Source: an uncultured archaeon
GTDB lineage: Archaea > Asgardarchaeota > Lokiarchaeia > Sigyniarchaeales > SOKP01
Reading direction: 5' to 3'
Assembly (NCBI GenBank): GCA_964486045.1
Contig: CAZALK010000011.1
Location: 96,001-160,000 of the forward strand
DNA: 64,000 bases
Shown: piece by piece, positions 51,594 through 55,075 of the stretch
How the letters are laid out: every line of letters begins with the position of its first letter
Position numbering within the stretch: position 1 is the first letter of the stretch
Made by a program: the position numbers and the translations under genes
Notes under the pieces: generated by a model
Seen by the model: only the letters and a program-made list of their open reading frames with translations
What the model was told of the DNA's origin: nothing
Databases searched by the model: none

Positions 51594-52007
51594 ATGGAAA
51601 AGGTCTACATTGACACAAATATATTTCTCAACCCCATTTTATATGATACAAAAACAAATCAGGAAGCTAGCAAATCTAAAAGCTTTTTAGAAAAGATTAT
51701 CGTTAATGAAATAATTGGATTTACATCTGTTTTAACTTGGGATGAATTTGTTTGGATTATAAGAAAAACTTTAGGCATACAAGTAGCTATAGAGAAGGGG
51801 AGAAAGTTTCTTATTATTCCAAATCTAAGAATTGTAAAAGTATCACTAATAACTATAAATCGGGCGCAGGATTTAATATCTAATTATAGTATTCAACCTC
51901 GAGATGCCATTCATGTAGCATGTGCATTAGAAAATAAAATAAATCAAATTATCAGCTTTGATGAAGAATTCGACATTATTAAGGAAATAGAAAGAACTGA
52001 ACCATAA
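51594..52007 (+). CDS. vapC: VapC PIN-domain toxin
   Basis: YIDTNIF, TWDEF, PRDAIHVACA, ISFDEEFD. Confidence 0.92.
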   Translation: MEKVYIDTNIFLNPILYDTKTNQEASKSKSFLEKIIVNEIIGFTSVLTWDEFVWIIRKTLGIQVAIEKGRKFLIIPNLRIVKVSLITINRAQDLISNYSIQPRDAIHVACALENKINQIISFDEEFDIIKEIERTEP

Positions 52008-52056
52008 ATATCAAATATATAATTTAGAGACTTACGCCCATCAAAAAATTAAATAA

Positions 52057-52419
52057 TTATTTATCATTTTGTAAAGATTTATTATGAGCCCATTTCATTA
52101 AAGGTATCATAGCATCTCTAACTTCGATTCCATCCTGAGTTAGCGAGTATTCCACTTTTGGAGGTATTTCGGGAAAGAGCTCTCTCTTTATTAAGCCTGC
52201 TTCATTCAACTTTTTTAATCTATCTGAAAGGGCTTTTGGGCTTATACCTTTAATATCTTTTAAAAGTTCATTAAACCTTAACTTATCATAATTACTGATT
52301 GTGCCAATAATCACTAATGCCCATTTTTTACTAATGACATTAATAATTCCTTCTACCGGGCAAAAACAAAAGCCCTCTTCTCCCGTATTTTTACAACGAA
52401 TCCCAGTAACCTTTTTAAT
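52057..52419 (-). CDS. HxlR/DUF24 winged-HTH regulator with CFCP thiol motif (N-terminus extends beyond the ORF-track call; probable ATT start)
   Basis: Open frame IKKVTGIRCKNTGEEGFCFCPVEGIINVISKKWALVII..RFNEL..ISPKALSDRL..PPKVEYSLT; GGTGAG SD upstream of ATT at 52419. Confidence 0.85.
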   Translation of the reverse strand: MKKVTGIRCKNTGEEGFCFCPVEGIINVISKKWALVIIGTISNYDKLRFNELLKDIKGISPKALSDRLKKLNEAGLIKRELFPEIPPKVEYSLTQDGIEVRDAMIPLMKWAHNKSLQNDK

Positions 52420-52525
52420 ACTATCTCACCATTTTACTACTTACTATACAATTTAATACTGGACAATTTAAATACTTTATTATCTATATCTACTATAAAA
52501 ACTAAAGTATTGAAGGTGATAAAAA

Positions 52526-52675
52526 ATGCTCGAGGAATCTCATCTCATAAAGAAAGTCGAAATTCAACCAGAACAAAATGCTTGTTCTTGTGGTTGTACG
52601 GGTCAAGAAAATGAAAATTTTGAAGAAACTAAACAAAAACTAGTTAGTCAGTCCCAAAATGAATCAAAGAAATAA
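52526..52675 (+). CDS. 49-aa peptide with CSCGC motif, putative metal-binding (not in ORF track)
   Basis: AGGTGA SD then ATG; MLEESHLIKKVEIQPEQNACSCGCTGQENENFEETKQKLVSQSQNESKK*; divergent from HxlR. Confidence 0.7.
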   Translation: MLEESHLIKKVEIQPEQNACSCGCTGQENENFEETKQKLVSQSQNESKK

Positions 52676-52686
52676 GTTGTAATTAT

Positions 52687-52953
52687 ATGTTAATTTTAAA
52701 ACATGTCGAATATGAAATACCTGATCTTAATCAATTGAATCTACTATTAGAACATATAAATCAAATATCTTCTAAAATTGAAGGGATTTCATTTACTGAC
52801 ATTTTTTTTTCTAAAAATGGGAAGGAATTTGTTCTTCTGTTAGAATCTGAAAGTGAAGAAGTTTATCTTAATTGGAGAAAAATATGTCCTCCTCCATCTG
52901 GTACTAGAGATTGGTATGACGTATATTTGTCTAAAAAAGAAAGTTTCTCTTAA
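52687..52953 (+). CDS. Small hypothetical protein in the metal locus
   Basis: 88-aa ORF 11 nt after the CSCGC peptide; WRKICPPP. Confidence 0.65.
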   Translation: MLILKHVEYEIPDLNQLNLLLEHINQISSKIEGISFTDIFFSKNGKEFVLLLESESEEVYLNWRKICPPPSGTRDWYDVYLSKKESFS

Positions 52954-53117
52954 ACCTTGCAACCTTATTGGAAAGAACCTATACAAGAACTTGTCATAAA
53001 ATCTGAAATCAACACTCTTCAACATTTAGAAACCTAAGTCATATTGAAACTTAAGTTCACGAGCTATCTTATTAAATTAACTCCTAATTATATGAATTAT
53101 TATAAAATTATAACTGG

Positions 53118-53169
53118 AAGTTATTTAAATAACTTAATCCTAAGATTAATGTAAATCTGTTAAAGATTT
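53118..53169 (+). promoter_or_regulatory. TATA-centred perfect 18-bp palindrome plus two short inverted repeats upstream of the UGA-containing gene
   Basis: AAGTTATTTAAATAACTT (53118-53135), TTAATC-ctaa-GATTAA, AAATCT-gttaa-AGATTT. Confidence 0.5.
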
Positions 53170-53183
53170 TTTCGTTGATTATT

Positions 53184-53393
53184 ATGTTATATAATTGTAC
53201 CGTACATTGCCCATTTTGTGGACATTTAAATAAAGTTGAAATTCCGGAAAATAAATGACTTCTGAGCCTTGAATGTCAAGGTTGTAAGGATATCATTTCA
53301 GGGAAGGAAAATCCCCATGGTTGAAATTGAGTATTATGCGCTTATGGTGACACTCCTTGAGTACAAATTCAAGCAAAAGAAAAAATCAAGTAA
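53184..53393 (+). CDS. Putative GDCCVxC-family selenoprotein with four in-frame UGA (Sec) codons
   Basis: MLYNCTVHCPFCGHLNKVEIPENK-U-LLSLECQGCKDIISGKENPHG-U-N-U-VLCAYGDTP-U-VQIQAKEKIK*; TGA at 53256, 53322, 53328, 53358; ends in TAA. Confidence 0.75.
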
Positions 53394-53400
53394 AAAAAAA

Positions 53401-53448
53401 TCAATGATGCCAATGAATAAATGTTAGTCATTGGTTAAGACGAGATTG
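53401..53448 (+). promoter_or_regulatory. SECIS-like stem-loop candidate
   Basis: ATGA (53404) + 11 nt + AAA; helix GCCAATGA/TCATTGGT; 3' core reads TAAG rather than canonical NGAN. Confidence 0.45.
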
Positions 53449-53589
53449 CGCTCTCGAAAATTAAAAATAATATCTATAATCTCCTTTTTTTTATATATTA
53501 TTATAATAAGATTGAAAAAAGTTTTGATTGTAGATCTAAATAGAATAATAAATTAATAACTAATTTCTTTATTTAGAAGATGAAACAAA

Positions 53590-54993
53590 ATGGAAAACTA
53601 TGAATTAATTATAATAGGCGGCGGAGCAGCAGGATTTGCTGCTGCAATGAAAGCTAATGATTTAAAAATTAAAGCCCTAATGGTAAATAATGATGCGATA
53701 GGATTAGGTGGAACATGTGTTAATGTAGGCTGCGTTCCAACAAAATATTTGCTAAATATCGGAGATTTAATTAACAAATCGAGAAATCAACGATTTGAAG
53801 GTATCAAATCATCGATTTCTGTTAATTTTCAAAAAGTCATCGAGGGAAAAAATAATCTTATCAAGCAATTGCAACAGGATAAATATGAAAATGTTTTGAA
53901 AAAATTACCAAACGTTGATCTTGTTGAAGGTAATGCCAAATTCGTTTCAAACTCAGAAATTCAAGTGGATAATCAAAAAACATTTAAAACAAATAAATTT
54001 ATTGTTGCTACTGGCTCCTCATCTTTTATTCCACCAATAAAGGGTATTGAGCAAGTTGATTACACCACTAATATTGAAGCACTTCAATTAGAAAAGCTAC
54101 CAGAGACTATGATTGTTTTAGGTGGGGGTGCATTAGGAGTTGAATTTGCTCAATTATTTTCTCGATTTGGGACAAAAGTTTATCTTTTTGAAATGCTAGA
54201 TAGTATAGTACCAAATGAAGAACCTGAAATATCTCTTTATCTAAAAGAATATCTTCAAGATGAAGGAATCGAGATTTATACAAATGCTAAAATAATTGAA
54301 ATCGAAAATGGAGATAGTGAGAAAGTAATAAAAGTACTTCATAATAACAATGAGTCAACATTTAAAGCAGAACACATTTTAATCGCAGCAGGAAGGAAGC
54401 CTAACACTAACAATCTAGGACTAGAAGAAATTGGAATAAATTTAGGAAAGAAGGGACAGATTATCGTTGATGAATTTATGAAGGCAAGAGAAAACATATG
54501 GGCTGCCGGGGATGTAATCGGTGAACCAATGTTAGAAACTATTGCTGCTAGAGAAGGAATGATTGCTACGACGAATGCTTTATCAGATGAAAAAATTAAA
54601 ATGGATTACAGAGTGGTTCCCCATGCAATTTTTACCAGTCCTCAAGTTGGGAGTGTTGGTTTAACTGATCTCCAAGCAAATCAAATGGGTTTTGATTGCA
54701 GATGTAATACAATCCCAATTGGGTTTGTAGCTAAATCAAAAATCATTAATGAAGATAAAGGAGTATTAAAAATCGTAATCAATAGAAAAACAGAAGAAAT
54801 TTTAGGCATTCACATTTTATCTACTAATGCTGCTGATCTAATTCATGAAGGTGTTATGATTATTAAGAATCATATGACACTCGATGATGTAATTAGTACA
54901 ATCCATGTTTTTCCTACATTATCAGAAGCTATAAAACTTACAGCCCAATCATTCAAACGAGATATTTCTGTTATTAGTTGTTGTATTGAATAA
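53590..54993 (+). CDS. merA: Mercuric reductase (no N-terminal NmerA domain)
   Basis: GGGAAG FAD motif, GGTCVNVGCVPTK active site, HVFPTLSEAIKL, C-terminal vicinal SCCIE. Confidence 0.93.
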   Translation: MENYELIIIGGGAAGFAAAMKANDLKIKALMVNNDAIGLGGTCVNVGCVPTKYLLNIGDLINKSRNQRFEGIKSSISVNFQKVIEGKNNLIKQLQQDKYENVLKKLPNVDLVEGNAKFVSNSEIQVDNQKTFKTNKFIVATGSSSFIPPIKGIEQVDYTTNIEALQLEKLPETMIVLGGGALGVEFAQLFSRFGTKVYLFEMLDSIVPNEEPEISLYLKEYLQDEGIEIYTNAKIIEIENGDSEKVIKVLHNNNESTFKAEHILIAAGRKPNTNNLGLEEIGINLGKKGQIIVDEFMKARENIWAAGDVIGEPMLETIAAREGMIATTNALSDEKIKMDYRVVPHAIFTSPQVGSVGLTDLQANQMGFDCRCNTIPIGFVAKSKIINEDKGVLKIVINRKTEEILGIHILSTNAADLIHEGVMIIKNHMTLDDVISTIHVFPTLSEAIKLTAQSFKRDISVISCCIE

Positions 54994-55075
54994 CTTTATC
55001 TATTTTACATCAGATAAGATATAGATAAAGTGTATAATGAGAATTTTACCAAATTTAAAATCAAGGTAGTTTAAA

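Follow-up and report, generated by a model that had tools for sequence, protein, structure and literature searches.

A probable eukaryote-like SECIS element behind a four-UGA GDCCVxC gene upstream of merA in an uncultured lokiarchaeon

Locus and element

The window studied here is a stretch of 64,000 nucleotides (G000:C11:96001-160000, where G, C, L and f are our handles for genomes, contigs, loci and families) from the 5.18 Mb genome, with a G+C content of 31%, of an uncultured archaeon of the Lokiarchaeia. It carries a small gene of the GDCCVxC / GOS_B (seleno)protein family whose reading frame contains four TGA codons, and directly behind the TAA stop codon of this gene lies an RNA hairpin element. 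Judged from sequence comparison and predicted structure, the element is very probably the selenocysteine insertion sequence (SECIS) of the 69-codon gene, and it would belong to the eukaryote-like type I of Asgard archaea, the lokiSECIS. The features of the locus are as follows.

53184..53393, + strand: GDCCVxC / GOS_B (seleno)protein gene, 69 codons, ATG to TAA, assigned from its translation
53396..53456, + strand: whole candidate SECIS element (5' flank, core, helix II, apical loop, 3' core and 3' mini-hairpin)
53404..53407, + strand: 5' core AUGA, the 5' side of a kink-turn-like quartet, 10 nt past the stop
53408..53416, + strand: 5' strand of helix II, UGCCAAUGA, with U53408 unpaired and G53409 in a G-U pair
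53417..53427, + strand: apical loop of 11 nt, AUAAAUGUUAG, with an A-rich start and an AG end
53428..53436, + strand: 3' strand of helix II, UCAUUGGUU
53437..53438, + strand: 3' core AA, a variant of GA; an alternative core GA lies at 53439-53440
53441..53456, + strand: 3' mini-hairpin CGAGA-UUGCGC-UCUCG, pair probabilities 0.88-0.98
53485..53492, + strand: T8 tract, read from the sequence, possibly an archaeal terminator or the 3' strand of a distal helix I
53590..54993, + strand: merA, mercury(II) reductase (TIGR02053, 534 bits, cut-off 454; Pfam Pyr_redox_2 and Pyr_redox_dim)

The in-frame TGAs are codons 25, 47, 49 and 59 (53256-53258, 53322-53324, 53328-53330 and 53358-53360), and the TAA stop occupies 53391-53393. 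When cysteine (Cys) is put in place of selenocysteine (Sec, U), the product matches NF041374, 'GDCCVxC domain-containing (seleno)protein', with 48 bits against a cut-off of 40. The match spans residues 6-64 and profile positions 2-57 of 58, that is, the whole domain. In the protein alignment, U25, U49 and U59 fall on conserved Cys residues of the Cys-form homologues. The U47-x-U49 motif stands where these forms have the eponymous CC, and a 3-residue insertion is present at this point. A protein search of 400 genomes of the phylum showed that the four TGAs are kept in 27 other genomes. With the GDCCVxC protein as the query against the genome-contig collection, no relative was confirmed.

The four-UGA gene is located directly upstream of merA, and the SECIS-merA order recurs in relatives. 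The encoded MerA is the core enzyme without the N-terminal metal-binding domain and has a CC pair at its C-terminus. A P1B-type ATPase gene follows merA, and an HxlR regulator is found upstream. By way of MerA, the closest named relatives of the genome are metagenome-assembled genomes labelled 'Promethearchaeota archaeon', including Loki_b32; Promethearchaeota is the current name of Lokiarchaeota. Two small open reading frames (ORFs) are co-oriented with the selenoprotein gene, at 52526-52675 (+; 49 residues, with the motif CSCGC) and 52687-52953 (+; 88 residues). Neither of these two ORFs in 52526-52953 has a Pfam or NCBIfam match.

Read in the SECIS register, the element consists of AUGA, UGCCAAUGA, AUAAAUGUUAG, UCAUUGGUU and AA in this order. 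The stem formed by 53408-53416 and 53428-53436 contains seven Watson-Crick pairs, one G-U pair and one U-U mismatch, and the loop has A at four of its first five positions and AG at its last two. The UGAs lie 44-146 nt upstream of the SECIS core, the last one being only 44 nt away. The original prediction, which was made from the letters of the DNA, had proposed a eukaryote-style 3' SECIS serving the four-UGA gene, a proposal now supported by covariance models, covariation and the contrast between ortholog forms. The parts that it listed are all present: the AUGA, an AAA at 53419-53421, the GA at 53439-53440, an 8-bp helix GCCAAUGA/UCAUUGGU at 53409-53416/53428-53435, and the second hairpin that we describe below as the mini-hairpin. 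It had also called the element a variant at best, reading the 3' core as UAAG. This caveat no longer applies, because a nine-position register in which U53408 and U53436 face each other unpaired makes AA at 53437-53438 the 3' core, and AUGA_AA is a published variant of the lokiSECIS.

Related elements in the same genome

A strict pattern scan of the genome gave 18 sites, and the loops of 11 of them are near-identical, of the form A[A/G/U]AAA..[U/G]AG. Apart from the studied element, the sites with such loops directly follow SelD, three AhpC/TSA peroxiredoxin-like (PrxL) genes, three HdrA-VhuD (FlpD) pairs and further ORFs with UGA. The identities of SelD (AIRS domains, with U in the N-terminus), of the PrxL genes (UxxC or UxxU) and of the HdrA-VhuD genes were confirmed by Pfam. 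A relaxed regular expression (stems of 8-10, loops of 10-12, two mismatches) returned 218 mostly spurious sites, and covariance models were therefore used instead.

The first model, R1, was trained on 11 further elements of the genome, with the studied element left out. The alignment of these elements shows compensatory changes in all nine helix pairs, and 93.9% of its cells are paired. Its covariation score was reached in none of 500 shuffles, and slid registers were only 36-48% paired. The closing position of the helix is unpaired in four of the 11. With filters off, R1 matches the studied element (53396-53443) with 47 bits and an E value of 5e-9; the next match in the 64 kb scores 15.8 bits. 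The score of 47 bits falls within the range of 43-57 bits covered by the genome's own SelD, PrxL and HdrA-VhuD elements. Because two of the R1 training elements could be relatives of the studied element, a stricter model, R2, was built from only seven elements (SelD, three PrxL and three HdrA-VhuD). In a search of the window, R2 gives the studied element 34.2 bits (E 1.6e-5). Both models place the hairpin in one RNA family with the elements behind SelD and HdrA-VhuD, the comparison that the original prediction had called for, and also with the PrxL elements.

In the whole-genome searches, in which the best 150 first-look candidates were scored, R1 and R2 return the same 13 sites in 5.18 Mb. 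For R1 these are the 11 training elements, one type II-like site and the studied element, whose rank is higher than that of two training sites. Eleven of the 13 follow ORFs with an in-frame UGA, and one follows the remnant of such a gene.

Three observations on these sites may be added. The lokiSECIS at C16:46341-46388 (-), with an R1 score of 44.6 bits, has a 3' mini-hairpin very like the studied one. In the roughly 60 nt before it, there is only a 17-codon ORF (23 codons from stop to stop) that ends in ..CSHSDTPULKIQQ. This ORF resembles the C-terminus of the GDCCVxC protein and is apparently what remains of a paralog whose SECIS was retained. The type II-like SECIS is located outside the window at C11:51224-51281 (-), about 45 kb upstream on the same contig, and scores 35-38 bits. 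It is composed of AUGA, a 9-bp stem, an apex with a ministem, GA, and then a GC-loop hairpin. No recognisable ORF is found upstream of C11:51224-51281, where a Roadblock/GTPase-like gene gives way to about 1 kb of sequence that appears to be non-coding. Finally, in VhuD at L016 (C3), in the gene at L023 (C35) and in others, the continued frame meets the UGA of the AUGA core. The stop codon of such genes may be the core's own UGA, with stop and SECIS overlapping.

Orthologs with selenocysteine and with cysteine

Among the 400 genomes, the copies from the same family (f1) and the sister family (f3) have four in-frame TGAs, with five in one copy, and the copies from f13, f16 and f18 are all-Cys. 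Apparent '1 TGA' forms are Cys forms with TGA as the terminal stop.

An R1 match of 29.5-50.4 bits lies directly 3' of the stop in 20 of 20 Sec-form loci of f1. Helix II of these orthologs shows double changes in seven of nine pairs, and 91.8% of the cells are paired. At the closing position, 11 of 19 orthologs have no pair, so that the U-U found here is typical. AUGA shows no variation, either among the 11 other elements of the genome or among the 20 same-family orthologs, and the AAA and the last G of the loop are likewise invariant in both alignments. The 3' core of the f1 orthologs is GA in 17 and AA in three (the studied element, G230 and G244); the closest ortholog has GA where the studied element has AA.

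The orthologs of f3 have SECIS-like hairpins of type I or II in seven of seven cases, as determined by inspection, with weaker R1 scores (14-20 bits or under the threshold). These hairpins combine AUGA (once AAGA) with an 8-9-bp stem, a GA core, and either a loop of the G/A-UAAAC type or a type II apex. Six of the seven directly follow the stop; in G135 the hairpin stands about 110 nt further 3'. Three of the f3 genomes with a four-UGA ortholog are closed, namely G135, G138 and G143.

None of the 36 Cys-form loci, which come from other Asgard families, has an adjacent downstream R1 match of at least 15 bits. The best adjacent score is 14.2 bits, at a distance of 150 nt and with an E value of 0.39. 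The lokiSECIS is thus conserved in the Sec-form orthologs and absent from the Cys-form orthologs. The original prediction was to be abandoned if the hairpin were lost from UGA-containing orthologs, or if it were equally present after Cys-only ones, as a terminator would be. The hairpin is kept, with covariation, after every UGA-containing ortholog examined and is missing after the 36 Cys-only orthologs, so neither outcome occurred.

Two copies deserve separate mention. The copy at L056 in G194, a genome of the same genus, is a pseudogene that contains three TAA codons, behind which a decayed element still scores 20 bits. The ortholog at L057 in G139 has a fifth UGA in place of the second Cys of the zinc-ribbon CxxC.

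Selenocysteine machinery

The components required for Sec insertion, namely tRNA-Sec, EFsec, PSTK, SepSecS and SelD, are all represented in the host genome, EFsec and PSTK as best matches below their cut-offs. The tRNA-Sec gene is found at C15:137829 (63.5 bits, above the cut-off) and is adjoined by SepSecS (493.6 bits, above the cut-off). On the opposite strand, about 4 kb away from tRNA-Sec, there is an EFsec-like gene of 231 bits. This arrangement is close to the reported Loki layout, in which EFsec is located about 6 kb upstream on the opposite strand. A PSTK-like gene scores about 140 bits, and SelD itself contains a Sec codon. PF21208 (euk_SelB_III) has no match in this genome; the control likewise matched nowhere, so that this missing match is uninformative.

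The 3' mini-hairpin

A mini-hairpin is found 1-5 nt past the 3' core in 12 of 12 type I elements of the genome (for example C1:759918, C2:206184 and C3:142939) and at the same place in 20 of 20 f1 orthologs (L025-L042, L050). Its stems vary (CGAGA/UCUCG, GGGAU/AUCUC, AGGA/UCCU, GGAGAA/UUCUCC), and its loops usually contain (U/A)GC(A). The tails that carry it have a median folding energy of -3.9 kcal/mol, compared with -1.4 kcal/mol for random 32-mers of the genome (Mann-Whitney p 1.3e-5). In a column-wise count over the orthologs, 87% of its pairs are paired, with four sequences off by one column. Elsewhere in the genome, most elements have a helix I that connects the 5' flank with sequence beyond the mini-hairpin, resulting in a three-way arrangement. 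The mini-hairpin is a conserved part of the SECIS element and not a separate feature. Neither the mini-hairpin nor the three-way architecture was found described in the text of PMC4989117 or PMC11227280.

It is conceivable that hairpin 1, which comprises the core and helix II, is not the functional unit by itself, and that the mini-hairpin (hairpin 2) is the true Sec determinant or the three-way junction is obligatory. The constancy of the mini-hairpin and its (U/A)GC(A)-containing loop would fit this explanation, as would its enclosure by helix I in most other elements. The finding that euryarchaeal-like structures lie mostly downstream of eukaryote-like ones (Huang et al. 2024, PMC11227280) points in the same direction. 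The same authors, however, judged such structures to be probably non-functional. Moreover, hairpin 2 has neither the defining GAA_A bulge nor a G-C-only upper stem, and it is much more variable in sequence than the AUGA, loop and core motifs. As a euryarchaeal GAA_A SECIS it was rejected, its flanks being GA (5') and AAAA (3') and its stem containing A-U pairs. We consider this explanation quite improbable overall. A role of hairpin 2 as the sole determinant is unlikely, and a role as an accessory part is compatible with the assignment of the element as a lokiSECIS.

Core register and competing explanations

Several observations weigh against the SECIS assignment. The 3' core is AA and not GA, and R2 inserts the AA and aligns GA at 53439-53440 as the core. 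R1 aligns AA at 53437-53438 to the 3' core, and the elements behind SelD and behind an ORF on contig C25 (see below) likewise have an AA 3' core. Orthology favors AA at the GA position, with the exact core register left ambiguous by R2. Unlike most other elements of the genome, the studied one has no convincing helix I adjoining it; judged from the sequence, the T8 tract could pair with the A-run at 53393-53400 as a distal helix I. An Rfam cmscan of 52000-55000 at E <= 10 returned no SECIS or other credible family, a miss that is expected because published tools also miss the lokiSECIS. The EFsec-like and PSTK-like genes score below the curated cut-offs (231 vs 242 bits and about 140 vs 290 bits, respectively). 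Finally, a duplicated CAAUGA permits an alternative 10-bp pairing, which involves its first copy and buries the AUGA. In the nearest-neighbour model, this alternative register is the minimum free energy structure (-15.1 vs -13.4 kcal/mol) and accounts for 57% of the ensemble, against 43% for the SECIS register. The 96-nt fold has a z-score of -2.48, and folding energy alone is modest evidence for a SECIS.

The two near-isoenergetic registers of this copy raise the possibility of a kink-turn or other structural RNA with a different task, such as L7Ae binding or a register switch that controls mRNA stability or merA, with UGA recoding depending on something elsewhere. The element lies 147 nt upstream of merA in an arrangement that recurs, which would suit such a role. 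The alternative register, however, is not kept beyond close relatives. The second CAAUGA arose by a compensatory change from A-U to G-C, with an A-C intermediate in G229; close relatives can form the alternative pairing, and distant orthologs, including G241 and G174, cannot. Covariation follows the SECIS register, and the alternative was rejected as a conserved structure. In addition, the motif is also found behind SelD, PrxL and HdrA-VhuD genes, none of which has merA downstream, and it is absent after the Cys-form orthologs. A regulatory RNA of this kind is therefore very improbable.

That the element is an ordinary intrinsic hairpin or transcription terminator with a chance likeness to a SECIS is scarcely credible. 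The position right after the stop, the T8 tract that follows and the modest z-score would agree with it, but the models find just 13 sites in the genome, nearly all behind UGA-containing ORFs or a remnant of one, the unpaired AUGA, AAA, AG and [G/A]A are invariant where a terminator would not need them, and archaeal transcription terminates at oligo-T rather than at hairpins.

Proposed mechanism

We propose that the AUGA/AA core and helix II of the lokiSECIS form a kink-turn-like platform, above which the A-rich apical loop would be displayed. This platform could recruit the archaeal Sec-specific elongation factor with Sec-tRNA(Sec), directly or via an adaptor, so that all four UGAs would be read as Sec and not as stop. 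The product would be a small Sec/Cys-rich protein, probably metal-binding, which may hand Hg(II) to the adjacent MerA. We infer that one element serves all four UGAs, as the original prediction suggested, because no other model match is found in or near the gene; a single element is the only reading consistent with the data. To our knowledge, Sec insertion by any lokiSECIS has not been demonstrated experimentally, and insertion at the UGAs by the studied element is accordingly put forward as a likely function, predicted from its sequence.

Further candidate selenoproteins

The kind of RNA described here is already known, and the gene family that it serves is a previously unreported Asgard selenoprotein. 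We found no paper naming the GDCCVxC family as an Asgard selenoprotein, and it is absent from the seven families listed in PMC11227280. Elements of the same RNA family follow other ORFs as well. An ORF of about 160 residues at C25:38547-39038 (+) (L021:2498-2989) has two adjacent in-frame TGAs in the motif HADUUAD, and its lokiSECIS (AUGA..AA) lies at C25:39042-39089, 8 nt past the stop. This Sec-Sec ORF has no Pfam or NCBIfam match and adjoins an ACR3-like transporter. Sec-Sec paralogs with the motifs GCUU and AUGUU are found at L041:436-792, at L041:1002-1364 and in L040. In G155 and G175, tandem Sec-Sec copies immediately precede the GDCCVxC gene, and every copy has a SECIS of its own. The family occurs in 136 of the 400 genomes searched, comprising 116 of 134 genomes of the same family as well as members of families f2-f7 of the class, and the listed matches all have 2-3 in-frame TGAs. 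We regard the Sec-Sec ORF as a candidate for a widespread selenoprotein family outside the seven Asgard families of PMC11227280.

Two small, apparently membrane-spanning ORFs with one UGA each are candidates for new small selenoproteins. They are located at C3:142680-142928 (+) (L015:2741-2989; motif GSGNUSC) and C35:3571-3795 (+) (L023:2789-3013; motif SLAUGTRRP), and a lokiSECIS directly follows each of them, with R1 scores of 53 and 51 bits, respectively. Neither ORF has a family match.

Taken together, these genes allow a tentative reading, which we hold to be possible rather than likely: Lokiarchaeia may have a selenium-based set for metal and metalloid detoxification that has escaped annotation because the genes are cut at UGA. 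Its members might be the GDCCVxC protein with four or five Sec residues, feeding Hg(II) to MerA, the Sec-Sec family and the small membrane selenoproteins. The signal might be a compact three-part SECIS, consisting of helix II, the 3' mini-hairpin with its GC loop and usually helix I. Such an element could then insert up to four or five Sec residues processively within 35 codons, as close as 44 nt to the core.

If this is true, the published seven-family Asgard selenoproteome lacks a substantial part, and the lokiSECIS contains a conserved module that has so far gone undescribed. The near-perfect specificity of the 13 sites for selenoprotein genes throughout the 5.18 Mb is an independent confirmation of the lokiSECIS, and a SECIS model can retrieve selenoprotein genes that are cut short at UGA by gene callers; here it also brought to light the candidate Sec-Sec family and the candidate small membrane selenoproteins. 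The Sec form in two families of one order and the Cys form elsewhere provide a clean natural contrast with and without SECIS. The AA core, the U-U closing position, the mini-hairpin and the short distance between UGA and SECIS bear on the working of the archaeal-to-eukaryotic Sec system without SBP2.

Comparison with known SECIS types

The published lokiSECIS has an AUGA immediately before a 9-bp stem, followed by GA, or by AA in VhuU (Mariotti et al. 2016, PMC4989117). Its loop is 11 nt long, with A favored at the first five positions and an ultraconserved last G that is usually preceded by A. The definition of type I by Huang et al. (2024, PMC11227280) asks for a GA_[G/A]A core, a stem of 7-15 bp with no more than two mismatches, and a loop of 8-20 nt. 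The studied element agrees with the lokiSECIS class in its core, stem and loop, in its position after a gene with Cys-equivalent UGAs, and in its match to an independent model. It shares with the lokiSECIS type I the same AUGA, the nine-position stem, the 11-nt loop with an A-rich start and AG end, the [G/A]A core, the position after the stop and the service of several UGAs by one element. AUGA_AA variants are documented in Lokiarchaeia (PMC4989117, PMC11227280), where the AA core is reported mainly for VhuU/FrhA and for some HdrA/FrhD genes. The studied element differs from the published examples in its U-U closing position, in having no evident adjacent lower stem, and in serving a gene outside the seven listed Asgard families.

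The eukaryotic SECIS (SECIS_1, RF00031) has the same location in the 3' untranslated region (UTR), a non-Watson-Crick core of the AUGA...GA type and unpaired adenines in the loop, and it likewise acts at a distance on several UGAs. Its helix II, however, has about 12-15 positions compared with the nine found here, and the element does not match RF00031 at E <= 10. A further difference is that the last UGA here is as near as 44 nt to the core. SBP2 is not known from Lokiarchaeota (PMC4989117). The euryarchaeal SECIS of Methanococcales and Methanopyrus shares the 3' UTR site and the archaeal EFsec/PSTK/SepSecS pathway, but its GAA_A bulge and G-C-only upper stem are found neither in hairpin 1 nor in hairpin 2. 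The bacterial SECIS, in contrast, is a hairpin in the coding region after each UGA; in the Rfam scan, none of the bacterial families SECIS_2 to SECIS_5 matched anywhere across the gene at E <= 10.

The original prediction compared the service of four UGAs by one 3' element to the recoding of animal selenoprotein P. This likeness holds as an analogy only, since selenoprotein P uses two SECIS elements together with coding-region structures (PMC5727441). The closer precedent is the Loki HdrA-VhuD system, in which up to 5+2 Sec residues share one 3' element (PMC4989117). The gene described here has four Sec residues among 69, within a span of 35 codons, and five in one ortholog.

GOS_B is listed with one Sec and originates from marine bacterial metagenomes (2026 review, PMC13188914). 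The protein studied here has the same small zinc-ribbon-like N-terminus and Cys-rich C-terminus as GOS_B / NF041374. In contrast to the published GOS_B, the Lokiarchaeial form has four Sec residues, UxU in place of CC, a 3-residue insertion, and a SECIS of the Asgard rather than the bacterial type.

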